Positions 1,963 through 17,092 of a stretch of DNA of 17,626 bases are shown one piece after another; position 1 is the first letter of the stretch; each line of letters begins with the position of its first letter. The notes under the pieces are model-generated. The model saw only the letters and a list, made by a program, of their open reading frames with translations. It did not search any database and was not told where the DNA came from. Both the position numbers and the translations under genes were made by a program. Source of the DNA: Calditrichota bacterium (GTDB taxonomy: Bacteria; Calditrichota; Calditrichia; Calditrichales; Calditrichaceae); the NCBI GenBank assembly GCA_003854985.1, contig RQOG01000153.1, positions 1-17,626 on the forward strand, in the 5' to 3' direction.

Positions 1963-2077
1963 GAAAAACCTGTTTCCGGTAATTCAATTATTAGGATCTT
2001 GATAAAACGATCCTATTGTTGAATGCAATTCTCCAAAGGGATTGCACAAATTTATTTGATTTGAAAGGAAGGTTAAA

Positions 2078-2290: not shown

Positions 2291-2379
2291 TAGATTCTAT
2301 GATAACGATTGGCACAATGTGTAAGAAATAATCAGATTTGACAAAAAAGTAAAATGTGACAGTGTGAATAATGTTATCC

Positions 2380-2392
2380 TTTAGTATAGAAT
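2380..2392 (+). promoter_or_regulatory. Copy 1 of the recurrent intergenic motif TTTAG-TA-TAGAAT, a candidate −10-like promoter element.
   Basis: TTTAGTATAGAAT. TAGAAT matches the TATAAT consensus at 5 of 6 positions. Every copy of this 8-mer in the window lies in intergenic DNA. Confidence 0.3.
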
Positions 2393-2470
2393 TGAAACGA
2401 GCTTTGATCCATGCACATCCATGCAGGAGAATAGTTCATGATGGAATTCATTGAGTACATAGTAAAAAAA

Positions 2471-2478
2471 ATTCTATA
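2471..2478 (-). promoter_or_regulatory. Inverted copy of TATAGAAT (the + strand reads ATTCTATA) in the same long intergenic region.
   Basis: On the minus strand this reads GGTTTATAGAATTTT. It would fire toward lower coordinates, where no gene lies nearby, so it could mark a small RNA or a divergent promoter. Confidence 0.2.
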
Positions 2479-2692
2479 AACCACGTTAAGTTCCTATCAT
2501 TTAAAATACATTGAAATGGCAGAACTATTAACTGTATGTCCCTCATAATCCAAAACTATAATCAGGTATACAAAGCGAATCAAATGCAGCAGATTAAATG
2601 GGTAACGCGGCGGCAAAGATTTTTTTCTTGATATTTGATCAGATGAAATGTATTATTTAACCCTATTTCCATATATGAGTATAAGAGACCCA

Positions 2693-2706
2693 TTTAGCTA
2701 TAGAAT
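2693..2706 (+). promoter_or_regulatory. Copy 2 of TTTAG-CTA-TAGAAT, the promoter candidate for the gene starting at 2727.
   Basis: TTTAGCTATAGAAT ends 20 nt before the ATG at 2727 and 11 nt before its GGAGG Shine-Dalgarno site. Confidence 0.3.
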
Positions 2707-2726
2707 ATGACAAGTTGGAGGTAAAA

Positions 2727-3311
2727 ATGAGAGCGTTGTCTGTTTTAAGCCTGGCGTTTTTACTCTGCTATTGTGAAAAATCAACCACATCGGTTGAAAA
2801 ATATACAATCAGCTGGCCGTTACGGGCGGACTCCATGAACTTTGCCATTTTAGGCGTTAACGGGGAAACGTATGCTCTGGAAGGCGGATATTTTGCTCAT
2901 TATGAAAAATGCGCGAACTGTTCTGCCGACAGTCTGCCTTTCGATGTAACAACTATACTTGCCCATGGCTTTGATGTAATAACCTTCAGGTATTCTTATA
3001 CAATGGACACATTATTCCGCGCTTTTCTTTTCCTGAGCAGCTCTCAATCCAATTCGGTTTTTTCCCCTGAATTAAATCTTTTATCAGATCAATTTAAAAC
3101 AGTAAACCGAAAGGTTGAAATGCCTCAGCAGGTTGAATATTATGGTCATTATTATCTGTTTGATCAGGCGACGCTGGAGCAGAAAAGCGACAGTGCATGG
3201 AATGCCATAAGTGATCTGGATATTGTTAATGATTTCAGTCAGCAAAATTTTCAGGTTGGATTTTTTCGCTTTAACAAACAACCGGAATGGCTTGTATTTC
3301 TGGTAAGGTAA
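2727..3311 (+). CDS. Hypothetical secreted protein with an N-terminal signal peptide and no recognisable domain.
   Basis: The track ORF starts at a TTG at 2715. The ATG at 2727 is better supported because GGAGGT sits 4 nt upstream. The N-terminus MRALSVLSLAFLLCYC is signal-like. The rest is Y/F/S-rich and matches no family I recognise. Confidence 0.5.
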   Translation: MRALSVLSLAFLLCYCEKSTTSVEKYTISWPLRADSMNFAILGVNGETYALEGGYFAHYEKCANCSADSLPFDVTTILAHGFDVITFRYSYTMDTLFRAFLFLSSSQSNSVFSPELNLLSDQFKTVNRKVEMPQQVEYYGHYYLFDQATLEQKSDSAWNAISDLDIVNDFSQQNFQVGFFRFNKQPEWLVFLVR

Positions 3312-3538
3312 GGCTTGCTATAATAACTATCGTTAAAATAAAATATCATTAATTTTTATACTATTGATTTGGATATCAAGTCGAATGTTTTAATTACATT
3401 ATAATTTTTATGAAATTTGAACTTATGCACTATAAAATAGTTTGAGGATTTAAATGTAGAAAAAAAACGACTCATCCTTATTAAAACACCCAATGTAGTT
3501 ACATTTAAAATTTAGGTTTAAAGATCAAGGAGGTTGTA

Positions 3539-4021
3539 ATGCGAAATTTACCGCTCATTATGTTTGGGATTATAACAATGTTAGTATTATCCTGCAGTAG
3601 TGTTAAATATGTTAAGTCTTCCGATGATCCTGATGAAACGCTCAGGGAATTCAATTATCTGGCGCGACATCGCACTGGTTATATCGTGCTTAATTCCGGA
3701 GAAATTATCGAAACCTACCTTATTAAATTACAGAAAGACAGTTTGGAATATATTGAACAGGATGAATCATCGTATAAAACCATCCATTCGAATGAGATTA
3801 AACTGATATATTTTAAAGACCGCTTTTCGTCCGCCATGCAGGGAGCGCTGGCAGGCGCAATAGGAACAGGACTGATTAGTCTTGCAGTGATTGACAGAGA
3901 TGCGGATATGGCAGGTCTTGCAGTTGCTTATGCTATGGCTGGCGGTACTGTTGTCGGCGCGGCAACCGGAGGATTGATTGGTAATAAGGTTAAATACATC
4001 ATCCTGCCCGATGAAAAATAA
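3539..4021 (+). CDS. Lipoprotein with a C-terminal glycine-zipper (Gly-zipper_2TM / 17-kDa-antigen-like) domain.
   Basis: GGAGG SD sits 6 nt upstream of the ATG. The N-terminus has a signal peptide plus a VLSC lipobox-like Cys. The C-terminus is GALAGAIGTGLISLAVI...AYAMAGGTVVGAATGGLIGN, a GxxxG-repeat glycine zipper. Confidence 0.55.
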   Translation: MRNLPLIMFGIITMLVLSCSSVKYVKSSDDPDETLREFNYLARHRTGYIVLNSGEIIETYLIKLQKDSLEYIEQDESSYKTIHSNEIKLIYFKDRFSSAMQGALAGAIGTGLISLAVIDRDADMAGLAVAYAMAGGTVVGAATGGLIGNKVKYIILPDEK

Positions 4022-4196
4022 TAGATAAACATCCTGGTTAGAGAGTTATACGATAAAAATAGTCAAAGCATGGCTGAATACATATATCGTTTTCATCGTT
4101 AACTCCTGTGATGACGGCAGAGGTAAAAATATCATTCTTAATGTATTCGAAATTGTTTTGTATTTTCTCTTTGCGTAATCTCCTTGTGAGAAATGT

Positions 4197-4207
4197 TTTA
4201 ATAGAAT
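4197..4207 (+). promoter_or_regulatory. TAATAGAAT, a −10-like element about 46 nt upstream of the HD-domain gene.
   Basis: TTTTAATAGAATTGC shares TAGAATTG with copy 1 at 2387-2394. Confidence 0.25.
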
Positions 4208-4253
4208 TGCTGAATTATTTTGGTTTCGTTGATTATTAAAAGGGAAGCGTGCA

Positions 4254-4832
4254 TTGAAGGAAATCGAAAATATTTTAAGCTTCATCGTGGAGCTTGATAA
4301 ACTCAAGAATGTATATAGAAAATCCAGGCCGGTTGGTGTGGACCGTTATGAAAATTCCGCCGAACACAGCTGGCAAGTCTGCCTGGCTGCCCTGGCTCTG
4401 AAAGATTTTGCCAACGAAAAAACCGACATCGACCGGGTGATTAAAATGCTGTTAATCCATGATCTTGGCGAGATTGACGCCGGAGACACCATTGTTTATG
4501 CGGGTAAAAGCAGGGAACAGAAGGCGCAGGAAACAGCCGGTGTGGAGAGGCTGCTGAGCTTTCTTTCCGAAAGCAACTGTAAGGAATACCTGGCGCTGTG
4601 GTTTGAATTTGAAGAGGGTGAAACCCCGGAAGCAAAATTTGCCCGGGCGATCGACCGGGTGCCGCCGTTACTGCAAAACCTGAATGGTAAGGGATGTACC
4701 TGGCAGGAAAACAATATCGGCAAAGAGCAGGTGTTTACCGTGAACCGCCGCATCAGCGAGGGCAGCAGGGAACTTTGGAAAACCATAAAAGCCATGCTGG
4801 ACAAAGCCGTAGCAGACGGCATTTTGAAATAA
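4254..4832 (+). CDS. HD-domain phosphohydrolase, YfbR/HDDC2-like 5'-deoxynucleotidase family.
   Basis: TTG start with AAGGGAAG SD. Motifs ENSAEHSWQVCLAA and LLIHDLGEIDAGD supply the His...His-Asp...Asp metal ligands of HD hydrolases in the same order as E. coli YfbR. Confidence 0.75.
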   Translation: MKEIENILSFIVELDKLKNVYRKSRPVGVDRYENSAEHSWQVCLAALALKDFANEKTDIDRVIKMLLIHDLGEIDAGDTIVYAGKSREQKAQETAGVERLLSFLSESNCKEYLALWFEFEEGETPEAKFARAIDRVPPLLQNLNGKGCTWQENNIGKEQVFTVNRRISEGSRELWKTIKAMLDKAVADGILK

Positions 4833-4848
4833 ATAAGGATGAAAATTT

Positions 4849-5181
4849 ATGAACCGGATATTTCCTGAACCGATTACAAATCTGCCGGAGGCGGATATTC
4901 CGCTGGATGGCGTAACCGCTTATCTTTCTCAATCGGATACGCATCAGATAATATTTATGCAGTTTGCAAAAGATGTTGATCTGCCGGAACACGCACATGC
5001 TTCGCAGGTGGGCATCGTTTTAGAGGGCAGGATCGAATTGATTATTGATGGCAAAAAACAATGTTTCACAAAAGGAGACCGTTATCATATTCCCGCAGGC
5101 GTAAAACATTCCGGTAAAATCTATGCCGGATATGCGGATATAACTTTTTTCAATGAGCCGGACCGGTATTCTGAGAAATAA
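4849..5181 (+). CDS. Cupin-2 conserved-barrel protein.
   Basis: AAGGA SD. The HAHASQVGIVLEGRIELIIDGK...GDRYHIPAGVKHS stretch is the two-motif cupin signature (G(X)5HXH...G(X)5PXG(X)2H). Confidence 0.7.
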   Translation: MNRIFPEPITNLPEADIPLDGVTAYLSQSDTHQIIFMQFAKDVDLPEHAHASQVGIVLEGRIELIIDGKKQCFTKGDRYHIPAGVKHSGKIYAGYADITFFNEPDRYSEK

Positions 5182-5226
5182 TAACTGGCATTAACTGTAC
5201 TTACTGGGAAATCGGGACATAAATAC

Positions 5227-5265
5227 TTGACAGTACGTACGTTTGTTTATATTTTACATACGTAT
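5227..5265 (+). promoter_or_regulatory. Promoter of the toxin-antitoxin operon with two palindromic operator candidates.
   Basis: TTGACA (5227-5232), a 15-17 nt spacer, then TATATT/TATTTT (5248-5255). The perfect palindrome GTACGTAC (5233-5240) sits in the spacer, and ATACGTAT (5258-5265) sits at the expected transcription start. Confidence 0.4.
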
Positions 5266-5282
5266 TGATTGGGGTGAATAAC

Positions 5283-5540
5283 ATGAATAAAAAATTAACT
5301 TTATTACTTGATGAAACAATAATCAGCCAGGCCAAGGAATACGCAAGAAAACAAAATGAAACGCTTTCCGGAATGGTTGAAAAATATTTTTCCTATATAA
5401 CAACAAAAAATCCCGGAAAAGTACATATAAGTACTTCCCGTGATATTGAAGAACTTTCGGGTATAATCAAAGTTCCGGATAATTATAATATTAAAGAAGA
5501 CTATCGTCAATATCGTTCAAATCGGATTTTAAGTGAATAA
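5283..5540 (+). CDS. Type II antitoxin, ribbon-helix-helix (CopG/VapB-like).
   Basis: The ATG at 5283 (MNKKLTLLLDETIISQAKEYARKQNETLSGMVEKYF) has a GGGGTGA SD. A beta-strand then two helices is typical of RHH. It overlaps the downstream PIN gene by 8 nt (GTGAATAA). Confidence 0.6.
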   Translation: MNKKLTLLLDETIISQAKEYARKQNETLSGMVEKYFSYITTKNPGKVHISTSRDIEELSGIIKVPDNYNIKEDYRQYRSNRILSE

Positions 5541-5964
5541 ACTTTTTATTGATTCTGATATTTTAATTGATTTACTGGCCAAAAGACCGCACTATGATGA
5601 AGCGCTGGGATTATTAGCACTTATTGCAGAGAATAAGGCTAAAGCCTATACTACGCCGCTTGTGTTCGCAAACGTAGATTATATTGTTACCAAATTCGGG
5701 AACAAACAAAAATCAAGAAAAGCAATAAGAACACTTCGAAAGAATATTTCTGTTTTAACCATGAATGAAAAGATCTTTGATGAAGCTCTTGAATCTTCTT
5801 TTTCTGATTTTGAAGATGCCTTACAATATTTCTCCGCGATGAATCAGGCCGTTGACTTCATAATTACGCGAAACAAAAAGGACTATGCTGCGGGAAAACT
5901 TAAAGTACTTACAGCAGGAGAATATCTGGATATTCACTATGCAGAGCAACGCTCAAAAGGCTAA
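5533..5964 (+). CDS. PIN-domain toxin (VapC-like ribonuclease).
   Basis: GTG start. The N-terminal LFIDSDILIDLL carries the first catalytic Asp, and further acidic residues fall in FSDFEDALQYFSAM and DFIITRNKKDY. The 143-aa size and position after a small RHH gene fit a toxin. Confidence 0.75.
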   Translation: MNKLFIDSDILIDLLAKRPHYDEALGLLALIAENKAKAYTTPLVFANVDYIVTKFGNKQKSRKAIRTLRKNISVLTMNEKIFDEALESSFSDFEDALQYFSAMNQAVDFIITRNKKDYAAGKLKVLTAGEYLDIHYAEQRSKG

Positions 5965-6341
5965 ATGCTTCAGGTTAAAACCGGAAGATTTTTTATTATG
6001 GTTCAATATAGATTAAATTATGGAAAAAAATCGTTAACCGGCATACGCCTTTCCGTTTGGCCGATCAGAACATCGCCGAGTGGGAAACCCGTCTTCCGGG
6101 TGGTCTGCCTGTTTCGCCTGTCCAGGCGGCTTTATGCCTGCGTGAAATTTCCCGTACAGCCATGTTTATCAAAGGATTGGCTGGTGCTATCCGGAAAGAA
6201 ATGAGTAAAGTCCGCAAGCGCCTGTCTGCGTTTTATATGCGGGCTGCGGCCTTTATGCCTTGCTGCCCTGGCCGCTTCCAGCGTAACCACTTTTGTTTCG
6301 GGCAAATGATTCAAAATATAACAATGGCTTTCGATAGTTGA
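5965..6341. other. GC-rich non-coding island with internal imperfect direct repeats. It is a candidate structured RNA or gene remnant.
   Basis: GC content here is clearly higher than the flanking AT-rich DNA. It lies between the convergent PIN and feoB ends. Only short overlapping ORFs on both strands are present, none with a start context. CGCCTGTCy occurs at 6115 and 6219, and GCGGCyTTTATGCCTkGC at 6125 and 6247. Confidence 0.3.
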
Positions 6342-6468
6342 GTGTTAATAGTAATCGTTATCGAGAGCGGTTAAAAGTTAAAAAAAATTTTTGCTGATTG
6401 ACATTCGATACTCGGTTATACATTTTATCATGCCGAGTGCTCTGTCGACGCCTTTTTGATTCAGTCTT

Positions 6469-7851
6469 TTAAAACGAACGCACAATCTGAGCCACCAGAA
6501 AAGTGACCATAAAAGCAATAACCAGGGGCATCAGTGCTCCGATGGTGGTCCATTTGGCGCTTTTGGTTTCTTTCCAGATGGTTAAAATAGTTGTGGAACA
6601 AGGATTATGCAGTAAGGAAAACAGCATCAGATTGACAGCGGTGAGCAATGTCCAGCCGGCTTGATCGACTAATAATGATTTTAATTGCACCAGATCGCTT
6701 ATCTCAATCATCATGCCCGAATTGGTATAGCTCATGAGTATGGTGGGGACTACAATTTCATTGGCCGGAATGGCTATAATATAGGCCAGTAATATAGTGC
6801 CATCCATGCCAAGAAGATGCCCGAATGGCTGCAGGAACCGGGCAATCCACAAACTCAGGGATATGCCATCGATTGAAATATTAGCCAGCAGCCAGATGAT
6901 TCTGCCGGCTGGTGCCGCCATAATGATCGCTCGCCACAGGACAAATATGGTGCGGTCAATCAGTGATGTATAAAGAATGCGCATAATGTTTGGCTTGCGG
7001 TAAGGCGGCAGTTCCAGGGTAAAACTGCTGGCTTCCCCTTTTAAAATTGTTTTCGAAAGCGCCCAGGAAACCACGAAGGTAAAAATCACACCGAATAATA
7101 CAATACCGACCACCGATCCTGCGGCGATTATGGATGAAACTGCCGGGGGGAATGCGGCGGACACAAATACAATGGAAAGCATAATCAACGTGGGAAAACG
7201 TCCGTTGCAGGGAACGAAATTATTGGTTAAAATGGCGATCAGTCTTTCCCGCGGTGATTCGATAATCCGCGTGGCAATGACGCCGGCGGCATTACAGCCG
7301 AAGCCCATACTCATGGTCAGTGCCTGCTTGCCATGCGCGCCGGCCTTTTTAAATAACCAATCCAGATTAAAGGCTACCCGCGGCAGGTATCCGAAATCTT
7401 CCAGGATGGTAAAAATAGGGAAGAAGATGGCCATGGGCTGCAGCATCACCGCCACGACCCAGGCTAAACCGCGATATACGCCGTGTACAAAAAATCCGGT
7501 AAACCACCATGGTATATTCAGCCAATCCAAAACGGCCGCCATTTGATCTTCCAGCCAGAACAAAAAACCGGCGATCATCTGCGAAGGATAATTAGCCCCG
7601 ACAATGGTCACCCAGAATACTCCCATTAAAAGCAAAAACATGATGGGAAGTCCCCAGATGGGAGAGGTAAGAATACGATCGATTTTTAGGTCCAAATCGT
7701 ATTTGCGCTGTGAAGAGATATTCAATACTTTTGAACTGATTGTTTCCACATCTTTATAAATATCAATTACCATTATATCGCGGAAATTATCGTCCAGTCC
7801 TGAACGTACCTTGTTTGCTTTCTGGATAAGTTTCTTACCTGCCGAATTCAT
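6469..7851 (-). CDS. feoB: Ferrous iron transporter FeoB, C-terminal permease portion (nucleoside-recognition/gate domains).
   Basis: A 460-aa polytopic membrane protein. It starts with the FeoB linker KIDRILTSPIWGLPIMFLLLMGVF and then carries the paired FeoB membrane modules. Its ATG overlaps the stop of the G-domain ORF (ATGA), and AGGGGA sits 7 nt upstream. Confidence 0.85.
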   Translation of the reverse strand: MNSAGKKLIQKANKVRSGLDDNFRDIMVIDIYKDVETISSKVLNISSQRKYDLDLKIDRILTSPIWGLPIMFLLLMGVFWVTIVGANYPSQMIAGFLFWLEDQMAAVLDWLNIPWWFTGFFVHGVYRGLAWVVAVMLQPMAIFFPIFTILEDFGYLPRVAFNLDWLFKKAGAHGKQALTMSMGFGCNAAGVIATRIIESPRERLIAILTNNFVPCNGRFPTLIMLSIVFVSAAFPPAVSSIIAAGSVVGIVLFGVIFTFVVSWALSKTILKGEASSFTLELPPYRKPNIMRILYTSLIDRTIFVLWRAIIMAAPAGRIIWLLANISIDGISLSLWIARFLQPFGHLLGMDGTILLAYIIAIPANEIVVPTILMSYTNSGMMIEISDLVQLKSLLVDQAGWTLLTAVNLMLFSLLHNPCSTTILTIWKETKSAKWTTIGALMPLVIAFMVTFLVAQIVRSF

Positions 7852-8675
7852 AATGCCGTCCCCTGATCTTTTTGAGACGGACGGTCAAATATTGATTCGC
7901 CCAGAAATACATTCCATTCACCTTTTTCTATGGCTTTTTGCACCTTGATATCCCCATCGAGTAAGCGCATGGCTACCCAGCGCGGATTGGGCATATCGGG
8001 GAAAATCGTTTTGATTTCAGGAACCAGTTCATCCAGCGATTTTTTAATTTTATCACTGACCACAATACGGTGCGGTTTGGTTTTAATAATTCCGTCAATC
8101 ACATCGATTACTGCCTGAATGAGCTGACCTAAACCCTGTCCACTTCTGGCCACGGTTGGTATGACCGGCACGCCCAGTTCTTTTGAAAGCTGCGTATGAG
8201 ATACATCGATCCCTTTACGTTTAGCCTCATCAACCAGGTTAAGAGCTATGACCACTTTATTGGTAATCTCCAGAATCTGCAGGGTAAGATTCAGATTACG
8301 TTCCAGAACAGAGGCATCCACCACTATAATCGTGCAGTCCGGTTGACCAAAAAGTAGAAAATCCCTGGCAATTTCTTCATCAACGGATGCGGATAATAGT
8401 GAATATGTACCCGGCAGATCGACCAGTTTAAAGGATCTGCCACCCCATTTGAATCCACCTTCGGCACGGGTCACGGTTTTGCCGGGCCAGTTGCCGGTAT
8501 GCTGTTTTAAACCGGTTAAACTGTTAAAAACTGTACTTTTACCTGTATTGGGATTTCCGGCAAGCGCCACTACATGATCGATTTTATCAATTTCGATACC
8601 CAACCTTTTCAAATTGAAGCTGCAGGTATCGCAGACATTACCGGGAATAAGTCTGTTCTTTTTCTTGCGTTCCAT
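7848..8675 (-). CDS. feoB: FeoB N-terminal GTPase (G domain plus part of the helical/GDI domain) as a separate ORF.
   Basis: G1 GNPNTGKST, G3 DLPGT, G4 NLVD and G5 SGQG are all present. There is a roughly 30-aa N-terminal extension containing CDTC. GGAGAT SD sits 7 nt upstream of the ATG. Confidence 0.85.
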   Translation of the reverse strand: MERKKKNRLIPGNVCDTCSFNLKRLGIEIDKIDHVVALAGNPNTGKSTVFNSLTGLKQHTGNWPGKTVTRAEGGFKWGGRSFKLVDLPGTYSLLSASVDEEIARDFLLFGQPDCTIIVVDASVLERNLNLTLQILEITNKVVIALNLVDEAKRKGIDVSHTQLSKELGVPVIPTVARSGQGLGQLIQAVIDVIDGIIKTKPHRIVVSDKIKKSLDELVPEIKTIFPDMPNPRWVAMRLLDGDIKVQKAIEKGEWNVFLGESIFDRPSQKDQGTAL

Positions 8676-8691
8676 TAAAGATCTCCATCGT

Positions 8692-8707
8692 AAGAATATT
8701 AATTCTT
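8692..8707 (-). promoter_or_regulatory. A 16-bp palindrome (AAGAAT-ATTA-ATTCTT) immediately upstream of the feoB RBS. It is a candidate operator.
   Basis: The 6-bp arms are perfect. It lies in the 74-nt gap between the FeoA-fused regulator and feoB. The 10-mer AGAATATTAA also occurs upstream of the first dtxR-like gene (minus strand, + coordinates 10538-10547). Confidence 0.3.
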
Positions 8708-8749
8708 CTTTTCCTCATTTGATGTACCTGAAATGCTTTCCTTTGCGTT

Positions 8750-9736
8750 TCAGAATTTTTCAATAAAAATATTTCCGGCCTGTTTTTTACGTAAAGCGAT
8801 TTTAGCCCCACGGATGGAATAAGCCACCGGATCACCGCCAAATGAGCTGACTATAGCTTTGGTTATTTTTGCCCCTGGTGTAATACCCAGATCCAATATT
8901 CGCCTTCTGGCCAAACCCTGTATATCCGGTGAGAGGCCGATAACAATACCTGTTTCATTGGCAGACAGGTCCAACAGGCTTTTATTTTTCCTTGTTATCC
9001 CGCCCGTATAAGCAACCACATGAATATTTAGTGCTTCAAAAGTACTCAGAATCTGTTCCTTATCTTCAAATTTTATTGTAATTTTACAATCCTGCTTATC
9101 CGTAATTTTAATAAGCTGTTGAGGACGCAATCCCAACTTAAACAGTTTTTTACTGATATTATAGGGTTCATCTTCAATGTGATGAATCAATGCCTGATCC
9201 CCGGTAGTTAATTCGGTTACTGCCCGGATCTCTGTTTTTTTAATCCTGTGATCGATCGTCGGAATGGGATCACCATGCGGATCAATGGTTGGAAATCCGA
9301 GATGGACGTTTAATGCTTCCAGTCTGTCGCCCCGCAGATCATGTTCCATGTTTTCGGCCATACGGTGTATCTGGTGTATTGGCAGGTCTGTTTCCCTCCC
9401 CAGATAGGTTTCCCATAAACGATGAGCCCGGATAATTTCAATTACAACAGGTCGTCCTTCCGCTTTAAGCTCAATCCCTGTGGAAGTCATCCGGATCAAT
9501 CCTTTATTTTCCAGTTGATCCAAAATCCGGTAAATTTTATTTACCGATAATGATAGGGCACCTTTAAGACTTTCCACTGAGGCCGGTAATCCACGTTCAT
9601 TCCTGTGAAAAATAAACTTTAAGGCATCCTCATAATAAATACGGGTAAGTTTATTGTTGTAAGTTTTATCACGTTTGTAATAATAAATACCCAGGCCTGT
9701 AATTATAATTCCAAAAATAATATAATAAATCATCAT
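8750..9736 (-). CDS. Membrane-anchored DtxR-family metalloregulator with an extra C-terminal FeoA domain (TM, HTH, metal/dimerisation domain, SH3-like/FeoA, FeoA).
   Basis: Residues 1-21 (MMIYYIIFGIIITGLGIYYYK) form a hydrophobic helix. A winged-helix region and RAHRLWETYL...HQIHRMAENMEH...FPTIDPHGDPIP follow the DtxR N-domain pattern, then two SH3-like repeats. The second repeat (LGITPGAKI...GGDPVAYSIRGAKIALRKKQAGNIFI) is a textbook FeoA. Confidence 0.75.
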   Translation of the reverse strand: MMIYYIIFGIIITGLGIYYYKRDKTYNNKLTRIYYEDALKFIFHRNERGLPASVESLKGALSLSVNKIYRILDQLENKGLIRMTSTGIELKAEGRPVVIEIIRAHRLWETYLGRETDLPIHQIHRMAENMEHDLRGDRLEALNVHLGFPTIDPHGDPIPTIDHRIKKTEIRAVTELTTGDQALIHHIEDEPYNISKKLFKLGLRPQQLIKITDKQDCKITIKFEDKEQILSTFEALNIHVVAYTGGITRKNKSLLDLSANETGIVIGLSPDIQGLARRRILDLGITPGAKITKAIVSSFGGDPVAYSIRGAKIALRKKQAGNIFIEKF

Positions 9737-9754
9737 CTACCTGTTTAATATATG

Positions 9755-10411
9755 TTATTTAATAATTACTATAATTCCTTCCGCCATTTTACCTGAAAGC
9801 GACAAAAACTGTTTTCCATTAGTCAGCAGAAAGCTCGATTTACCAGGAGATAAATCGACCAACTCCCATACCGATCCTATCTTAAACTTTCTTTCAGTGA
9901 GGTAGTTCTCCGCTTTTGTATCCAGGTTTAGTTCATCTATTGTGAACATTAATCCGGTCTTCAAAGATTTAAGAACATGTTTTTTAATTTTTATGTCCAG
10001 GCAGGGAATTGATGAACCGTGCGGATCAACTGTTGGAAAATCCAGATATTTGTCGATATGATGCATCAGTTGATCGGAGACCACATGTTCCAATCGTTCA
10101 GCCTCTTCATGTAATAACTGACCGTCAAGTTTCAATACTTTTTCCAGAAAGGATTCGATCAAACGGTGTTTGCGAACCAGCCTAAGGGCAATCTGCTTCC
10201 CGGCATCTGTAAGACAGGCTCCATCCGATTTATTGTAATCAATAAGGCTTATTTTACACAATTGTTGAAACATGGATAGCACTGTAGGTGGTTTGACCTT
10301 ATATAATTCCGAAACCCTTTTTGCTGTCGCTTTACTATTTTTATCATTGATATACCAGATTAATTTTAGATAATCTTCCTGGCTGGGTGTTAATTTTGTA
10401 AACGAATTCAT
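9755..10411 (-). CDS. DtxR/IdeR/MntR-family metal-dependent transcriptional repressor with the usual C-terminal SH3-like domain.
   Basis: SQEDYLKLIW, RKHRLIESFL, HEEAERLEH and FPTVDPHG match the DtxR family. It lies 18 nt upstream of the next gene. Confidence 0.8.
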   Translation of the reverse strand: MNSFTKLTPSQEDYLKLIWYINDKNSKATAKRVSELYKVKPPTVLSMFQQLCKISLIDYNKSDGACLTDAGKQIALRLVRKHRLIESFLEKVLKLDGQLLHEEAERLEHVVSDQLMHHIDKYLDFPTVDPHGSSIPCLDIKIKKHVLKSLKTGLMFTIDELNLDTKAENYLTERKFKIGSVWELVDLSPGKSSFLLTNGKQFLSLSGKMAEGIIVIIK

Positions 10412-10523
10412 AAAGTTAGATATACCTACTTTAAAATAAGATTGCTCTAATTTATATTGTTTTTAAGAAAATGCAATTGTTTTTTTATGACCCGGGTAAA
10501 AAAATTGTTAATTATATTTCTCC

Positions 10524-10532
10524 ATTCTAATC
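10524..10532 (-). promoter_or_regulatory. Minus-strand GATTAGAAT, a −10-like element about 113 nt upstream of the dtxR-like gene. It is a candidate feo-operon promoter.
   Basis: The + strand reads ATTCTAATC. It is divergent from the + strand motif at 10563-10577. Confidence 0.25.
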
Positions 10533-10562
10533 TCATTTTAATATTCTCTGATTGATACGCTA

Positions 10563-10577
10563 TTTTAGGTATAGAAT
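10563..10577 (+). promoter_or_regulatory. Copy 3 of TTTAG-GTA-TAGAAT, a promoter candidate for the 2-oxoacid dehydrogenase operon.
   Basis: TTTTAGGTATAGAATTAT lies about 150 nt before the ORF at 10726 and 355 nt before the E1 ATG. Confidence 0.3.
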
Positions 10578-10725
10578 TATAAAACCAACTTTTTTGTTTG
10601 AACAGAACTGTTTCCGTCCGGGAAATTCCAGATCCTGTGGTCAGATTATTAAAATACCTGGCCGGAAATTTTTTCTTACGATTATTTCGTTTACTAAGGC
10701 GTCATAAAAAATAAAAGGCGCTGAT

Positions 10726-10941
10726 GTGAAATCCAAAAAACAGGCCATGTGCCCGCTCTTTCCGGATGTTGTCTGCCCGCAGGGGCAGGAAGCCGCCGAT
10801 GCCTGCCAGGTGCGGCAGAACGGCGATTATGATCCGGTTAACGATTTCCGCGATTATCTTTATATGAACTGTGCGATTCAGATCGCTCACCGGCAGAGTG
10901 AGAGTGAACAGAAAATGACCGGGAAACAGTCCGATGAATGA
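10726..10941 (+). CDS. Possible small Cys-containing ORF (71 aa) or structured GC-rich leader overlapping the E1 start by 8 nt.
   Basis: GTG start with a weak SD. The composition is GC-rich and coding-like, with four Cys residues and no recognisable family. It contains the hairpin CTGCCC-GCAG-GGGCAG (10775-10790). Confidence 0.2.
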   Translation: MKSKKQAMCPLFPDVVCPQGQEAADACQVRQNGDYDPVNDFRDYLYMNCAIQIAHRQSESEQKMTGKQSDE

Positions 10942-12982
10942 AGCGCTTGCCGTCAAATCTCAGCCTAAAGTCCGGAAATCGGGATTAAATAAATCCGTGC
11001 TGATTTCCCTGTATAAAAATATGATTACTTCGCGTTTGATGGATGAGAAAATGTTGATTATGCTTAAACAGGGTAAAAGCTTTTTTCATATCGGCGCGGC
11101 CGGCCATGAGGCGGCTCAGACCGCAGCCGGATTCGTTCTGCGTCCCGGAATTGACTATGCCTATCCCTATTATCGCGACCTGGCGTTTGTGCTGCAATAC
11201 GGAGTTACACCTGTGGAAATCTTTCTCAATTTTTTAGCCAAAGCGGCTGATCCCAGTTCCGGCGGCCGGCAAATGTCCAATCATTACGGTCATAGAGAAA
11301 AACGAATAGTCTCCCAGTCCAGTCCAACGGGCACGCAGTATTTACAGGCTGTCGGCACGGCCCTGGCCATCAAAAAAACAGGCGGCGATGAAGTCGTCTA
11401 TGTTTCTTCGGGCGAGGGCGCTACCAGTCAGGGTGATTTTCATGAGGCGTTAAACTGGGCGTCACGGGACCGTTTGCCGGTGATTTTTTTCATAGAAAAC
11501 AATAAATATGCCATATCCACGCCGGTAACCGAACAGATGAGCGGTGAATCGGTTTTTAAATTTACCGCTGGGTATGAAGGATTGAACCGTTTTCGGGCAG
11601 ACGGCACCGATTTTTTTGACACATACAACATAATACATCAGGCGGTTGAACGGGCAAAATCAGGAGATGGAGCGGCGCTGATCGAAGCCGATACGGTGCG
11701 GCTGATGCCTCATTCTTCTTCCGATTCACAAAAAAAATATCGCAGCAGGGAAGACCTGGAAAATGATATCAGGCGCGATCCGGTTTTGAGATTTCAGAAT
11801 TTCCTGCTTGAAAAAGAATATGCGGATGAATATGAAATTGATGAAATAAAAGCCGGATGCCGGAAGCTAGTCGATGAATCCGCTGAGGAGGCGCAGTCTT
11901 TTGCTGATCCGGATAAAAAAACACTATTCAATTTTATCCTGGCGCCGCAGGAAGAACACGCGCATTTAGCTTATGAAAAAATCGAGCCAAGCGGCAATAA
12001 AGTAGTTATGGTTGACGCTATCAATCATGCCTTAAAGGAAGAAATGGCTGCCAATGATAAAATGTATATTTTTGGCCAGGATGTGGCCGACGGCAAGGGC
12101 GGCGTATTCACGGCCACAACCGGCATCTCTACGGAATTCGGCAAAGAGCGTTGTTTTAACTCGCCTTTGGCCGAATCGAGCATCGTTGGCGTAGCCATCG
12201 GGATGGCGGTTACCGGATTAAAACCGGTGGTGGAAATCCAGTTCGGCGATTATATCTGGACGGCCATGATGCAGATTCGTAACGAGCTTTCCACGATGCG
12301 CTGGCGCTCTAATAATTTCTGGCAAGCGCCGGTGGTTATCCGCATACCGGTTGGCGGGTATATCCATGGCGGATTGTGCCATTCGCAGAATATCGAAGCG
12401 TTTTTCTCGCATATCCCGGGATTAAAAATTGCTTATCCCTCCAATGCGGCCGATGCCAAAGGACTTTTAAAAACCGCCGTCAGAGGCGGCGATCCGGTAT
12501 TGTTTTTGGAGCATAAAGGATTATACCGTCAGAGTAATGCCGCTACGCCGGAACCGGACAGCAAATACTTACTGCCTTTTGGGAAGGCAGCCCTGAAAAA
12601 GGAAGGACAGGATATCACCATAATCACCTGGGGGGCGTTGGTGCAGAAATCGCTCGAAGCCGCCAAAGCGCTGGAGAAGGAAGGCGTTTCCGTTGAAATT
12701 ATCGATATCAGGACCATTAATCCTTTGGATAAAGAAACGATTCTGCAATCGGTTAAAAAAACCGGAAAGGTTTTAGTGGCCCATGAAGATACCCGCTTCC
12801 AGGGTTTCGGGGCGGAAATTGCCGCACACCTTGCCGAATTTACCTTTGAATATCTGGATGCCCCGGTTATGCGCCTTGCCGGCGCGGACACGCCGGTGCC
12901 GTTTAGTCCGGTTCTGGAAGAAGAGGCGTTACCGCAGATTGATGATATAGCGGATGCGCTTAGAAAGTTATCGGAGTATTAA
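10934..12982 (+). CDS. 2-oxoacid dehydrogenase E1 component with fused alpha and beta subunits (TPP-dependent).
   Basis: 682 aa. The alpha part has the TPP motif GEGATSQGDFHEALNWASRDRLPVIFFIENN (GDG-X26-NN). The beta part has transketolase-like Pyr and C-terminal domains (GQDVADGKGGVF..., VVEIQFGDY..., PVLFLEHKGLY). Confidence 0.85.
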   Translation: MNEALAVKSQPKVRKSGLNKSVLISLYKNMITSRLMDEKMLIMLKQGKSFFHIGAAGHEAAQTAAGFVLRPGIDYAYPYYRDLAFVLQYGVTPVEIFLNFLAKAADPSSGGRQMSNHYGHREKRIVSQSSPTGTQYLQAVGTALAIKKTGGDEVVYVSSGEGATSQGDFHEALNWASRDRLPVIFFIENNKYAISTPVTEQMSGESVFKFTAGYEGLNRFRADGTDFFDTYNIIHQAVERAKSGDGAALIEADTVRLMPHSSSDSQKKYRSREDLENDIRRDPVLRFQNFLLEKEYADEYEIDEIKAGCRKLVDESAEEAQSFADPDKKTLFNFILAPQEEHAHLAYEKIEPSGNKVVMVDAINHALKEEMAANDKMYIFGQDVADGKGGVFTATTGISTEFGKERCFNSPLAESSIVGVAIGMAVTGLKPVVEIQFGDYIWTAMMQIRNELSTMRWRSNNFWQAPVVIRIPVGGYIHGGLCHSQNIEAFFSHIPGLKIAYPSNAADAKGLLKTAVRGGDPVLFLEHKGLYRQSNAATPEPDSKYLLPFGKAALKKEGQDITIITWGALVQKSLEAAKALEKEGVSVEIIDIRTINPLDKETILQSVKKTGKVLVAHEDTRFQGFGAEIAAHLAEFTFEYLDAPVMRLAGADTPVPFSPVLEEEALPQIDDIADALRKLSEY

Positions 12983-12984
12983 AT

Positions 12985-14220
12985 ATGAAACTGGAAATGG
13001 TTATGCCAAAAATGGGTGAGTCCATTACCGAAGGCGTTATTGTAAAATGGTTAAAAGCGGCAGGGGACACGGTGGAAAATGATGAGATCATTCTGGAAAT
13101 AAGCACCGATAAAGTGGATTCGGAAATACCGACGCCTGCGGCGGGTAAAATCATTGAATTGCTGGCCGGAGAAGGCGAAACGGTCGAAGTAGGTAAACCT
13201 ATCGCCGTAATAGAGACAGATCATGTAACCTATACAAAGAAATCTGCGGAAATAGTCGCCGGTCAAAATGAGCCGGTCAGTCAACCGGTTAAGCAGCCGA
13301 CGCTGAATAAAAGCATACAATTTAAAAAATCAAACCGGTTTTATTCACCGGTGGTCATGAATATGGCTTCGCAGCATAACCTGTCCATGGAAATTCTGGA
13401 AAGCCTTCCCGGATCGGGTTCGGGCGGACGCCTGACCAAAAAGGATTTACTGGCCTATTTAAATTCCGATACTCAGTCTAAATCACAAACCTCCGTATCG
13501 GATACCGTGCAAAAGCCGGCCGGTGACATGGTGGAAATCCTGCCCATGGATCATATACGTAAACGTATCGCGGAGCATATGATCCATTCCATTAAGACTT
13601 CCGCCCAGGTGGCGCTTTATACGGAAGTGGATATGTTAAATATTCATAAAATCCGTGAGGCCAATAATGAAATCTTTAAAGCCAGGGAAGGCTTTGGCCT
13701 GACTTATCTGCCGTTTGTCGTGGAAGCGGCCGTGCAGGCGTTAAAGGAATTTCCCCTGCTTAACGCCCGGATTGACGGCGATAATATTTTAATAAATAAA
13801 TTTTATAATATCGGTATTGCCGTGGCGGTAGAAAACGGATTAATTGTACCCAATATTTTTCATTGTGAAGAACTTAATCTGACAGGCATTGCCCGGGCGA
13901 TTAACGATCTGGCGGTTCGGGCCAGGAATAAAAAACTGAATCCCGATGAATTAACAGGCGGCACATTTTCGGTATCCAATTTCGGCCTTTATGGCGTCAC
14001 CGCGGGATTTCCTATTATAAACCAGCCGCAATCCGCCATTTTAGGCGTCGGCGCGGTGAAAAAACGCCCGGTGGTAATCGATGACGCTATTGCCATCCGG
14101 CCGGTTATGCATCTCTCGCTGACCATTGATCACCGTCTGATTGACGGGGCGATGGGATCACAGTTTTTACAGCGCATCGCTGGTCTTCTCGAAAATTATG
14201 ATATAACCCAAAAACCATAA
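12985..14220 (+). CDS. Dihydrolipoamide acyltransferase E2 (lipoyl domain, peripheral-subunit-binding domain, catalytic domain).
   Basis: Lipoyl-lysine motif EISTDKVDSEIP. E3-binding domain SPVVMNMASQHNLSMEILESLPGSGSGGRLTKKDLLAYL. Catalytic DHRLIDG motif. It lies 2 nt after E1. Confidence 0.85.
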   Translation: MKLEMVMPKMGESITEGVIVKWLKAAGDTVENDEIILEISTDKVDSEIPTPAAGKIIELLAGEGETVEVGKPIAVIETDHVTYTKKSAEIVAGQNEPVSQPVKQPTLNKSIQFKKSNRFYSPVVMNMASQHNLSMEILESLPGSGSGGRLTKKDLLAYLNSDTQSKSQTSVSDTVQKPAGDMVEILPMDHIRKRIAEHMIHSIKTSAQVALYTEVDMLNIHKIREANNEIFKAREGFGLTYLPFVVEAAVQALKEFPLLNARIDGDNILINKFYNIGIAVAVENGLIVPNIFHCEELNLTGIARAINDLAVRARNKKLNPDELTGGTFSVSNFGLYGVTAGFPIINQPQSAILGVGAVKKRPVVIDDAIAIRPVMHLSLTIDHRLIDGAMGSQFLQRIAGLLENYDITQKP

Positions 14221-14229
14221 TCCTTTAGT

Positions 14230-14568
14230 ATGTTCAAATATGAAAAGCATGTGTTTGTTTGCGGGAACCGCCGTCCGCCGAAAGCGTCTAAAAGGTCATG
14301 TGGCAATCATGGCTCGGATAACCTGTTTGATGCAATGAAAATCCGGGTGGGAGAGTCAGGCCTGGCTTCAAAAGTAAGAATTAACCGGGCGGGCTGTCTT
14401 GGGCGTTGTGATTTTGGACCAACGATTGTAATTTATCCGCAGGGAATCTGGTATGGCGGCGTAAAAATGGATGATATTGAAGAAATCATTGAAAAATCGA
14501 TTTTAAAAGATGAAATTATAGGCAGACTCGTCATCGGGAACAATAATGAAAAAACTGATACTCCATAA
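14230..14568 (+). CDS. Thioredoxin-like [2Fe-2S] ferredoxin.
   Basis: Cys ligands at C11, C24, C56 and C60 give the spacing C-X12-C-X31-C-X3-C, with HVFVCGN and GCLGRCDFGPTIVIYP. This is the pattern of NuoE/Fd4-type thioredoxin-fold ferredoxins. Confidence 0.7.
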   Translation: MFKYEKHVFVCGNRRPPKASKRSCGNHGSDNLFDAMKIRVGESGLASKVRINRAGCLGRCDFGPTIVIYPQGIWYGGVKMDDIEEIIEKSILKDEIIGRLVIGNNNEKTDTP

Positions 14569-15634
14569 ATTTCATAAATCGATGCAGGCGGCATTTGATA
14601 CGCTGGATGACCGCATCATTCCTTATCACTATGGCAACCCGGTAACCGAAGTTAATGCGCTGATGAATTCGGTTGGATTAACAGACCGCAGTTATCTGGG
14701 TAAAGTAAGACTGCGCGGAAAAGATGCCCTGGATTTATTAAACAGAATCAGTACGAATGACATGTCTAAATTGATGCTGGGCCAGGTTTGTGATACTTTG
14801 TTTACAACGCCGAAAGGCAGGATTATCGATTATTGCCGCGCCTTTATTTTAAACGGCGATATCATTCTTATCAGCAGTTATTCCAACACCAACCATCTGA
14901 TCAACTGGATCAACCGTTTTGTAATTACAGAAGACGCGGAAGCTATGGATATCAGCGACGACCTGGTCTGGCTGATGCTCGCCGGTCCCGACAGCTGCAG
15001 GTTTATTGAATCCTTATCTGCGGAAAAAGAAATTACCGCAGAAGACAATTTATGGCTGAACTTTGGTAATATTGCCTTTCCGGTTTTCAGTAATAAGGAT
15101 TATCTGGTTCCGGCCTATGATATCTGCATTTCTCCGGATGAAGCCAGGGAAATAGTTCCGGAACTTAAAGAGCGGTTGTTATTTTCAGAAGGCAGTATGG
15201 CCGGTTATTCTGCCTATCAGACGCTTCGGGTGGAAAGCGGTATGCCGGCCTGGGGAAATGAATTATCCGAAAACTATAATCCGCATGAAGCCAGGCTGAT
15301 TAACGCCGTCAGTTTTACTAAAGGCTGTTATACCGGTCAGGAGGTAATCGCCCGGCTGGATGCTTATGACAAGGTTCAAAAATACTTAATGGTGATTAAT
15401 CCTGATGATACAATTGATTTTAAGCCTCCGCTTGATATTTACCTGGATGATGAAAAGATAGGCACGCTGACCAGCCTGATAACCAATCCGAAGACAAACA
15501 AACCGGTGGGATTAGGTTATGTCAGTAAAAACTATGCGCTGGAAAATATAAATTTAAAAGCGGACATTGTAGCCGGCAACAAGCGAATAAATTCCACCTT
15601 GCGCATACCGCCTAAAAATTTGACATCGTTTTAA
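14546..15634 (+). CDS. ygfZ: YgfZ/CAF17-family folate-binding protein (GcvT-like), an Fe-S cluster repair/assembly factor.
   Basis: The family signature KGCYTGQE is present (FTKGCYTGQEVIARL), on an aminomethyltransferase-like fold. The start is ambiguous: 14546 overlaps the ferredoxin gene by 23 nt, while 14582 leaves a 13-nt gap. Confidence 0.75.
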   Translation: MKKLILHKFHKSMQAAFDTLDDRIIPYHYGNPVTEVNALMNSVGLTDRSYLGKVRLRGKDALDLLNRISTNDMSKLMLGQVCDTLFTTPKGRIIDYCRAFILNGDIILISSYSNTNHLINWINRFVITEDAEAMDISDDLVWLMLAGPDSCRFIESLSAEKEITAEDNLWLNFGNIAFPVFSNKDYLVPAYDICISPDEAREIVPELKERLLFSEGSMAGYSAYQTLRVESGMPAWGNELSENYNPHEARLINAVSFTKGCYTGQEVIARLDAYDKVQKYLMVINPDDTIDFKPPLDIYLDDEKIGTLTSLITNPKTNKPVGLGYVSKNYALENINLKADIVAGNKRINSTLRIPPKNLTSF

Positions 15635-15643
15635 ATTCCATGT

Positions 15644-16045
15644 ATGATTTCACCCATGATGAAGTTTAAAAAGCATTTTAGTGTAAATGAAGCCAATACA
15701 TTGATTACGGAACTAAAACCGATCATGCAGAAAATCCGTAATTTTACCCTGATTTTAAAGGAACAGGGATTTGACGTTTATCGCGGCAAGTTTTTTCCCG
15801 GATTTCATCCCGATACGTTGGATGAGTTTCCTCCTGTGTACCGGGAAATGATTGAATTGATGCACACGGTTTATACAAAAGGTATAGAAATAAAAGGACT
15901 GGAACAGGGATTGTTGGATTTTCCCGCCATGAGAAATAACGGCGAAGAAGTATATCTGTGCTGGAAACTCGATGAAGAAGAAATCGGTTTCTGGCATCCG
16001 CTGGAAGGCGGTTTTGCCGGTCGCAAATCGATTGAGGATTTATAG
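15644..16045 (+). CDS. Small conserved hypothetical protein (133 aa), possibly DUF2203-like.
   Basis: Clean ATG 9 nt after the ygfZ stop. The C-terminal GLLDFPA...EVYLCWKLDEEEIGFWHPLEGGFAGRKSIEDL resembles a conserved small-protein family. The family assignment is from memory only. Confidence 0.5.
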   Translation: MISPMMKFKKHFSVNEANTLITELKPIMQKIRNFTLILKEQGFDVYRGKFFPGFHPDTLDEFPPVYREMIELMHTVYTKGIEIKGLEQGLLDFPAMRNNGEEVYLCWKLDEEEIGFWHPLEGGFAGRKSIEDL

Positions 16046-16066
16046 GTAAATAAGCATAAAACATTT

Positions 16067-17092
16067 ATGAATATCGGCAATATAAATATTGAAAATAGTT
16101 TATTCCTGGCGCCTATGGAATCGGTAACCGATTATCCGTTCCGGATGATTTGCAGGGAATTGGGCGCTGATGTCGTTTATTCGGAATTTATCAGTTCCGA
16201 AGCGCTGGTAAGGGATGCCGAAAAAGCCTTTAAAAAAATGACCATCCGGGATGAGGAACGGCCGATTGCCATACAGATTTACGGTAACCGGGTGGAAGCC
16301 ATGGTAGAAGCGGCTCAGATTGCCGAAGAAAAAGGACCGGATTTTATCGATATAAATTTCGGCTGCCCGGTAAAGAAAGTTGCCTTAAAAGGCGCAGGTT
16401 CCGGCCTGCTGCGCGATGTTCCTAAAATGATTGAAATCTGCAAAGCGGTAGCCCGTTCGGTCAGTCTGCCTGTTACGGCGAAAACCCGTCTTGGCTGGGA
16501 TGAACATACCATTGAGATTGTTGAGATTGCCCGGATGATGCAGGATGTGGGTATTGGAGCCGTTGCCCTACATGCCCGGACCCGGGCCCAGGGCTATAAA
16601 GGTCAGGCCGACTGGACATGGATAAAACAGGTTAAACAGGCGGTTAGTATTCCTGTTATCGGCAATGGCGATATTTTAACGCCCGCGGATGCTAAAAGGA
16701 TGTTTGAAGAAACGGGTTGTGATGCCGTGATGATCGGAAGAGGCGCCATACATAATCCCTGGATTTTCAGAGATATCAAGCATTATTTAAAGACCGGCGA
16801 AATTCTGCCTCCCGTTCCGCTGGCCGATAAAATTGAGCTGCTCCAAAAACATTATCGTTTTTCTGTGGAATATAAGGGCGAGCGTAAAGGCGTCATTGAA
16901 ATGCGCAAGCATCTCAGCGGATATCTGAAAGGATTGCCGCATATTGCCAGGTTTCGTCTGCATATGATGCAATTTGACAAACTGGAACCGGTACTGGAAA
17001 ACCTGCAGGCGCTCAGGGAAGAAAAGGTATATAAGGATTTGATTATTCCGAAACAGGAGTCGTCCCTGGAAGATTCCTGTTTATCGTCATAA
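16067..17092 (+). CDS. tRNA-dihydrouridine synthase (Dus family, DusB-like).
   Basis: [51 protein letters not shown] and [14 protein letters not shown] are the TIM-barrel Dus signature, including the catalytic Cys in GCP. Confidence 0.85.

Follow-up and report, generated by a model that had tools for sequence, protein, structure and literature searches.

We describe here a four-gene metal-uptake cassette that lies on the minus strand of a 17,626-nt stretch of DNA from a Calditrichota bacterium of the Calditrichaceae (assembly GCA_003854985.1, contig RQOG01000153.1, positions 1-17,626; hereafter the window). The cassette is real and is conserved across many bacterial phyla, and it represents an under-described Feo system. 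Its four consecutive open reading frames (ORFs) encode a classic soluble regulator of the DtxR/MntR family (dtxR1), a second DtxR-family protein that ends in two FeoA domains and begins with a predicted transmembrane (TM) helix (here called G2), and FeoB in two separate parts, a stand-alone G-protein subunit (feoB-N) and a permease subunit (feoB-C). The explanation that we favor, and that we place somewhat on the probable side, is that DtxR1 is the transcriptional repressor of the operon, that G2 is a membrane-tethered FeoA partner of the transporter and that FeoB functions as two subunits.

The gene order had been predicted from the sequence before this analysis and was borne out by the ORF coordinates and by domain assignment of the window ORFs with Pfam and NCBIfam. 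dtxR1 (9755-10411, minus strand, 218 aa) is followed after 18 nt by G2 (8750-9736, minus strand, 328 aa), which is followed after 74 nt by feoB-N (7848-8675, minus strand, 275 aa); the stop codon of feoB-N and the start codon of feoB-C (6469-7851, minus strand, 460 aa) share a 4-nt ATGA overlap. The accompanying claim that the locus has neither a standalone feoA nor a feoC also held, in that a six-frame search of the window with both G2 FeoA domains found no FeoA-like fragment beyond G2 itself, and none of the window ORFs scanned matched the FeoC family. The ORFs adjoining feoB-C had no Pfam match.

Conservation was assessed in an alignment-based scan of GTDB species representatives, which gave 80 loci, and by classifying the ORFs of 86 loci through phmmer comparison with the four proteins of the window; a contig scan with G2 alone as the query gave no confirmed relative. 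The scanned loci span at least nine phyla, namely Chloroflexota, Calditrichota, Acidobacteriota, Ignavibacteriota, Bacteroidota, Gemmatimonadota, Verrucomicrobiota, Planctomycetota and Actinomycetota. A G2-type gene was present in 80 of the 86 loci, with feoB directly after it in essentially all of them; this pair of genes was seen in about 75 genomes. FeoB was split at the same point in 48 loci (with an N part of approximately 260-290 aa and a C part of approximately 460-490 aa) and fused in 20; in 8 others the contig ended within it, and in 2 it was in fragments. The position of the classic DtxR gene was more variable: in 28 loci it stood immediately upstream, in 6 it was divergent, in 4 it was downstream and in another 4 it was further upstream, and in 38 it was not in the fetched flank. 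Six relatives (L001-L006), with G2 identities of 75-52%, have the same four genes with identical ORF lengths in different neighborhoods.

FeoB is normally a single polypeptide in which the G domain and the permease are joined, and here it is encoded by two ORFs. feoB-N matches Pfam FeoB_N (PF02421, 4e-61) and part of FeoB_Cyto; it begins with a 34-aa extension that bears C15-x2-C18, continues with the G domain and ends with the first part of the helical domain, and the GTPase motifs GNPNTGKS, DLPG and NLVD are all legible. Since it aligns to NFeoB crystal structures at residues 5-223, the natural break falls within the variable end of the helical domain. feoB-C carries two Gate domains (PF07670) and FeoB_C (PF07664) and aligns to TIGR00437 at positions 218-594; a PDB sequence search with FeoB-C gave no match.

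G2 appears to belong to a known subfamily of twin-FeoA DtxR proteins. The sole characterized representative is PgMntR (PG1044) of Porphyromonas gingivalis, whose gene shares an operon with that of the Mn transporter FeoB2 (FB2) (Zhang et al. 2016, PMC4805248). Homologues of G2 number 4478 at E <= 1e-3, many of them 330-350 aa long and annotated simply as "DtxR family" or "FeoA domain-containing", and the closest named relatives are from Calditrichaceae metagenome-assembled genomes (52% identity). Pfam assigns to G2 the Fe_dep_repr_C domain (PF02742) and two FeoA stretches. The AlphaFold2 (AF2) model, built from 18 sequences and with a predicted local distance difference test score of 87.8, has a single helix over aa 2-47, in which the TM segment is continuous with helix alpha-1 of the DtxR fold, followed by a winged helix-turn-helix (wHTH), the dimerization domain and two SH3/FeoA barrels. 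The codons of the predicted TM helix lie at 9674-9733 on the minus strand (approximately aa 2-21, IYYIIFGIIITGLGIYYY) and are followed by KRDK. A hydrophobic 19-aa window (Kyte-Doolittle score >= 1.6) stands ahead of an invariant ED motif in 69 of 71 G2 orthologues, and the linker that follows it is basic (net charge +3.6). With Foldseek, residues ~36-245 found M. tuberculosis MntR (5zr6) as the top match and also SloR, IdeR and ScaR, and sequence matches of G2 in the PDB included the Mn/Fe repressors DR2539 (8pvt), MntR and IdeR.

The second, C-terminal FeoA domain of G2 (aa 253-328, 8753-8980, minus strand) is the only canonical FeoA module of the cassette. Pfam FeoA (PF04023) covers residues 253-327 at E=1e-21, with FeoA-1 detected too; residues 254-327 match the standalone FeoA structures 2k4y, 2k5l, 3e19 and 2gcx as well as the B. 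fragilis FeoA domain 7r7b; and the invariant FeoA residues R277, R278, R279, D282, G284, P303 and R316 are present (in the R-x-R-L-x-D-L-G and GDP...ALR motifs). FeoA is typically a small stand-alone cytoplasmic protein of approximately 75 aa, and here it is instead fused to the C-terminus of a 328-aa protein with a predicted membrane anchor. All FeoA-like matches in the 86 loci were inside G2 orthologues except in Actinomycetospora chlora (L077; NZ_BAABHO010000018.1, 4465-7743), where the genes ahead of split FeoB-N and FeoB-C encode a DtxR of 239 aa and, separately, a FeoA of 79 aa. The L077 arrangement is an unfused version of G2, which indicates that the G2 C-terminal domain is the FeoA of the system.

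We compared the two paralogs in the window and in 32 non-redundant loci that have both. In the recognition helix, pairwise identity was 0.23 for G2 and 0.44 for DtxR1 in the same 32 genomes, whereas identity in the dimerization domain was nearly equal (0.54 for G2 and 0.55 for DtxR1). The mean net charge of the wHTH core was -1.4 for G2 and +1.8 for DtxR1, and the recognition-helix motif xPA(S/A)VTxM is retained in the DtxR1 orthologues but not in those of G2. In addition, the predicted TM helix (from hydropathy and the AF2 model) argues against G2 being a soluble cytoplasmic repressor.

These comparative data fit the part of the original prediction in which the second paralog acts post-transcriptionally on FeoB through its FeoA domain: G2 is directly upstream of feoB, is the sole FeoA carrier, has a near-universal TM anchor and shows a relaxed recognition helix. 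G2 would keep an intact metal-binding DtxR dimer module, anchored to the membrane by its N-terminal helix, and would most likely sit beside FeoB, with its C-terminal domain providing the G-protein subunit with the FeoA function; it may in addition couple cytoplasmic metal occupancy directly to transporter activity. A more specific form of this proposal, which we offer tentatively and rate as possible though well short of probable, is that G2 is not mainly a transcription factor and instead serves as a metal sensor derived from DtxR and anchored in the membrane, which presents FeoA to the FeoB G subunit and turns transport off when cytoplasmic Fe2+ or Mn2+ fills its sites; with G2 as a scaffold, the separate G subunit would be brought to the permease, and transcription would be left to DtxR1. 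If this were true, it would amount to direct post-translational product feedback on a Feo transporter.

The wHTH of DtxR1 matches Fe_dep_repress (PF01325) with E=4.3e-11 and 43 bits, the cut-off being 26, and the dimerization/metal-binding domain matches Fe_dep_repr_C (PF02742, 7e-27). The match of the C-terminal 81 aa to FeoA/SH3 is weak (E=0.012), and dtxR1 can thus be described as an ordinary three-domain DtxR.

The likely operator, a candidate DtxR-type site recognized from sequence, is a pair of TTAG-N6-CTAA boxes at 10416-10450, ahead of dtxR1. Candidate box 1 (TTAGAGCAATCTTA, 10437-10450, minus strand) has one mismatch to TTAG-N6-CTAA and is 39 nt upstream of the dtxR1 ATG; candidate box 2 (GTAGGTATATCTAA, 10416-10429, minus strand) is 21 nt downstream of box 1. 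Aligning the dtxR1 upstream regions of the window, L001, L004 and L006 gave ATTAGA(G/T)(C/T)(A/T)ATCT(T/A)AT approximately 39 nt ahead of the ATG. The position of box 1 is conserved in L001-L006, with a perfect 16-bp palindrome (ATTAGATTAATCTAAT) in L004 and L005, and the box 2 site (ATAGGAATATCTAA) is present at -18 in L001-L003. Over all loci, we counted 35 exact copies of TTAG-N6-CTAA within the 16.7 kb that lie upstream of the operons, against 11 in the other 700 kb, an enrichment of more than 100-fold, and the symmetrized consensus of the box is aaTTTAGGCnnGCCTAAAtt. The half-site is similar to the TTAGG of the DtxR/IdeR iron box TTAGGTTAGCCTAACCTAA. Tandem boxes with centers 21-22 bp apart, or about two helical turns, were seen in L022, L044, L054 and L069 as well as in the window (10416-10450); this spacing suggests two regulator dimers on one face of the DNA. 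Given that the box is conserved across phyla, we consider the classic DtxR a stronger candidate than G2 for the protein that binds it.

A promoter-like pair, (T/A)TTG–19 nt–TAAATTAG, lies at 10447-10477 on the minus strand, and its second element overlaps box 1. In the alignment, the spacing and sequence of this pair were the same in the window, L001 and L004, and we take it to resemble a promoter of the Bacteroidota type (-33/-7). A sigma-70 promoter scan of 6300-10950 returned promoters at no more than chance level. A repressor on the boxes would occlude the putative promoter.

Taken together, a working model can be outlined as follows. The cassette would be one copy of a widely conserved Feo-type importer of divalent metal, the metal being Fe2+ and/or Mn2+. 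Its promoter would lie upstream of dtxR1 and overlap one or two of the TTAG-N6-CTAA boxes, to which metal-loaded soluble DtxR1 would bind, thereby repressing the operon including its own gene; our reasoning for this is based on the conserved box, the position of the box and the known behavior of the family. G2 would act at the membrane as set out above. FeoB would be made as two translationally coupled polypeptides, a GTPase and a permease, the coupling being suggested by the ATGA overlap, and the two would presumably assemble as subunits. The AAGAAT...ATTCTT repeat before feoB, to which we return below, would have no role.

The locus had been proposed to be a self-contained iron-uptake regulon under DtxR control; a Feo-type cassette with control by the DtxR family is what we find, but the iron label is unsafe since both paralogs have MntR-type ligands. 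An alternative that in our estimation comes close to being an even proposition, while falling a little short of it, is that the cassette serves to import manganese rather than iron, has regulators that respond to Mn and corresponds to the mntR-feoB2 operon of P. gingivalis. Both paralogs have an Asp/Glu/Glu/His primary site and a His/Glu/His ancillary site (D13/E105/E108/H109 and H82/E86/H101, respectively, in dtxR1), and the metal ligands of G2 are invariant across its family. The primary site aligns with Met10/Cys102/Glu105/His106 of DtxR and has the B. subtilis MntR pattern; the ligand numbering of DtxR and MntR in this alignment was verified. The best NCBIfam and PDB matches are to Mn-dependent repressors (NF047407, DR2539 (8pvt), MntR (5zr4/5zr6) and SloR), and G2 appears to belong to the subfamily of PgMntR, which shares its operon with the Mn transporter FB2 (PMC4805248). 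However, the NCBIfam scores are far under the equivalog cut-offs, and ligand identity alone does not set selectivity, as PgMntR binds both Mn2+ and Fe2+ (PMC4805248); DR2539 is likewise reported to respond to both Mn and Fe (PMC3327659). The FeoB parts, for their part, match generic ferrous-iron FeoB models.

A second alternative concerns the division of labor between the paralogs. G2 might be primarily a DNA-binding, metal-dependent autorepressor, that is, a membrane-tethered one-component regulator acting on TTAG-N6-CTAA, with FeoA domains that are structural and with DtxR1 as an additional or redundant regulator that has its own regulon. We consider this unlikely, if still deserving of serious attention. 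There is precedent in PgMntR, which in vitro binds a promoter fragment of its own feoB2 operon with enhancement by Mn2+, and which loses both DNA and Mn binding when its second FeoA domain is removed (PMC4805248); G2 has the motifs of the subfamily, the complete DtxR fold and all the metal ligands, and 20 boxes were found upstream of G2 in loci without an adjacent classic DtxR. What makes us doubt it is that, in the same genomes, conservation of the recognition helix in G2 is half that in DtxR1 despite a box that is conserved across phyla, that the wHTH is on average acidic, that the predicted TM helix running into alpha-1 would put the wHTH at the membrane surface, and that the absence of any other FeoA would be left unexplained. 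Furthermore, PgMntR appears to be atypical in that it is without a TM helix, and it bound DNA even as the apo-protein with EDTA (ethylenediaminetetraacetic acid).

Several observations nevertheless weigh against the explanation that we favor, in which DtxR1 is the repressor and G2 the FeoA partner of FeoB: (i) the box is as common in loci without an adjacent classic DtxR as in loci with one (20 and 14 boxes, respectively), of which the simplest account is that G2 binds the box, unless an unlinked DtxR does; (ii) given that PgMntR binds the promoter DNA of its own operon in vitro and requires its second FeoA domain for this (PMC4805248), G2 may be a DNA-binding repressor as well or instead; (iii) the differences between the paralogs in helix conservation and charge are statistical tendencies and no proof of lost DNA binding; (iv) the TM helix of G2 is predicted from hydropathy and AF2 only; (v) box 1 of the window is a degenerate copy that differs from the 16-bp palindrome of L004 at 3 positions; and (vi) G2 and feoB often overlap by 4 nt in other loci, whereas the window has a 74-nt gap in place of an overlap, which implies weaker coupling of G2 and FeoB expression.

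The original prediction had placed the control of feoB elsewhere, in a 16-bp palindrome within the G2-feoB gap, with a half-site that recurs ahead of the first regulator. This sequence, AAGAAT-ATTA-ATTCTT (AAGAATATTAATTCTT, 8692-8707, no strand assigned), is where it was said to be, 5 nt upstream of the GGAG that is the Shine-Dalgarno sequence of feoB-N. It is, however, only a pair of 6-bp arms (AAGAAT/ATTCTT) around a center (ATTA) that is not self-complementary, and we judge it to be a chance inverted repeat. AAGAAT-N4-ATTCTT with at most one mismatch had 1 match against 0.18 expected, a count that was reached in 34 of 200 shuffles of the whole window; inverted repeats with 6-bp arms and a spacer of 0-6 nt number 44 in the window (approximately 2.5 per kb), and 11% of shuffled versions of the 74-nt gap (32% GC) yield one. 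The half-site is indeed repeated, as AGAATATTAA has two exact matches in the window, at 8693 (plus strand) and, ahead of dtxR1, at 10538-10547 (minus strand); AT-rich regions of such sizes and compositions have some 10-mer in common in approximately 9-10% of shuffles. A second 10-mer, ATCGTAAGAA (8687-8696, plus strand, and 10673-10682, minus strand), is also common to the gap and the dtxR1 upstream region and overlaps AAGAATATTAATTCTT.

That AAGAATATTAATTCTT and the half-site upstream of dtxR1 form an operator for DtxR control of feoB is, in our view, very improbable. In its favor stand the repeat near the Shine-Dalgarno sequence, the recurrence of AGAATATTAA and the second common 10-mer, given that two or more 10-mers are shared by the gap and the upstream region in only about 3% of shuffles. 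However, a repeat of this type is absent from the orthologous gaps of L001-L006, which are of similar length, and its arms are neither conserved nor compensated there; AGAATATTAA is absent from L001-L006, and no 10-mer is common to the gap and the upstream region in L001, L004 or L006. The absence of the palindrome from orthologous loci had been named beforehand as an outcome that would count against the operator, and on this ground together with the chance-level frequency the claim fails; we have accordingly rejected the sharing of 10-mers between gap and upstream region as an operator signal. Moreover, no intergenic operator is possible in most other lineages because G2 and feoB overlap there, usually by 4 nt. 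Nor does AAGAATATTAATTCTT resemble the TTAGG-type box, and it is that conserved DtxR-type box, at 10437-10450 upstream of dtxR1, that we would put in its place. At the RNA level, folding of the G2-feoB gap gave no significant structure relative to shuffles (z = -0.87), and Rfam at E <= 1 had no match across 8500-10950, with no Mn or other riboswitch detected. The G2 stop codon lies within a stem of 7-9 pairs at 8728-8753 (sense strand, CUGAAACGC...GCAUUUCAG); this stem was dropped as a candidate regulatory element since it has no sense-strand U-tract and no evident equivalent in the gaps of L001, L004 and L006.

The least tenable alternative is that feoB is really one gene, broken into two ORFs by a frameshift or a sequencing error, which might be supposed from FeoB being classically one polypeptide and from the ORFs abutting with a 4-nt overlap, but which we regard as having a negligible chance of being correct, since the identical 275/460-aa split and overlap recur in independent assemblies, the split point is the same in 48 loci from many phyla, the ATGA overlap fits translational coupling and the equal ORF lengths amid different neighbors in L001-L006 exclude an artefact. 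The same 275-aa feoB-N ORF is found in L001-L005. The N-terminal extension of FeoB ahead of G1 is approximately 30 aa long and contains a conserved CxxC, which was found in 68 of 77 G2-linked FeoB orthologues (L004-L085), whether split or fused. It mostly reads C-E-T-C-P-x-H and then L-x-(K/R)-L-G; in the window (8622-8633, aa 15-18) it is CDTC, and the His is missing. The motif may serve this particular FeoB subfamily in sensing metal or redox state.

The genes that flank the cassette are of the housekeeping kind and have no relation to it (OmpA-like, SPFH, HD, a PIN toxin pair, 2-oxoacid dehydrogenase E1/E2, GcvT-like and Dus), and a search for tRNAs (transfer RNAs) gave none. Just downstream of the end of feoB-C, at 5265-5964 on the plus strand, a DUF6364 protein (91 aa) overlaps a PIN-domain protein (143 aa), and these two are a probable toxin-antitoxin pair. 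On the other side of the cassette is a 2-oxoacid dehydrogenase cluster (10934-15634, plus strand) with a fused E1 alpha/beta of 682 aa and an E2 of 411 aa, behind which are genes for a thioredoxin-like [2Fe-2S] ferredoxin-like protein (112 aa) and a GcvT-like aminomethyltransferase (362 aa). A Cys-rich ORF of 71 aa (10726-10941, plus strand, VKSKKQAMCPLFPDVVCPQGQEAADACQ...NCAIQ) is immediately upstream of the E1 gene and overlaps its start; it has no Pfam match and its GC content is above that of the adjacent intergenic DNA.

Our literature search found no description of a split FeoB polypeptide, of a membrane-anchored DtxR-FeoA protein, of strict pairing of such a protein with one FeoB subfamily or of an additional classic DtxR; subscription reviews such as Lau et al. 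2016 were outside the search, which is thus no proof of absence. The role of FeoA and the control of FeoB activity are described as unresolved (PMC8980893, PMC8749426), and the cassette offers naturally separated parts with which to study the interactions between FeoA, the GTPase and the permease, and possibly metal feedback. There are also consequences for annotation. A survey of Feo systems explicitly excluded DtxR-fused FeoA architectures (Sestok et al. 2022, PMC8980893), and surveys that discard such proteins will miss the FeoA component of these systems; similarly, the annotation of such loci as iron uptake may be wrong if it is manganese that is imported.

Among known systems, the closest parallel to G2 is PgMntR. 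The two have in common the order of wHTH, dimerization/metal domain, FeoA and FeoA, and an operon with a feoB that is devoid of its own FeoA. Zhang et al. proposed a previously undescribed subfamily of 41 sequences from 13 genera (PMC4805248), and their S1 Fig sets PgMntR beside homologues from genera such as Melioribacter, Ignavibacterium, Formosa, Cytophaga, Roseiflexus and Anaerolinea, which we place in the G2 family. In the fragments of that figure that are readable, the homologues have hydrophobic N-termini and share HHIEDEP, RAHRLWE.YL and RRRLLDLG with G2, and the genera listed overlap with our scanned loci. PgMntR differs in that it has no N-terminal TM helix, which G2 and most family members have (the word "transmembrane" does not occur in the paper, PMC4805248), in its primary-site ligand (Cys108 in PgMntR, Glu128 in G2) and in that the cassette described here has an extra classic DtxR ahead of G2 and a split FeoB. 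PgMntR would seem to be an exception, a protein without the anchor in a family whose members are mostly bound to the membrane.

With the classic DtxR, IdeR and MntR proteins (C. diphtheriae DtxR, M. tuberculosis IdeR and MntR, DR2539, S. mutans SloR and S. gordonii ScaR), the cassette shares the three-domain fold, in DtxR1 and in G2 residues 36-245, the primary and ancillary ligands, and a palindromic TTAGG-type box at the putative promoter. It departs from them in having a 14-bp TTAG-N6-CTAA core, often in tandem at 21-22 bp, rather than a 19-bp iron box, and in that G2 adds a TM anchor and an extra FeoA and has a poorly conserved recognition helix.

As in other FeoA-FeoB systems, the FeoB of the window has canonical GTPase motifs and a Gate/FeoB_C permease, although it is made as two polypeptides and has an N-terminal CxxC extension. 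The natural FeoA-NFeoB fusions, in B. fragilis and in P. gingivalis FeoB1, resemble it in lacking FeoC and, if G2 sits beside FeoB as proposed, in holding FeoA close to the G domain by means of protein fusion; the B. fragilis fusion shows contact between FeoA and the FeoB G domain (Sestok et al. 2022, PMC8980893). The difference is that in the present cassette FeoA is fused not to FeoB but to a DtxR-like sensor with a predicted membrane anchor.

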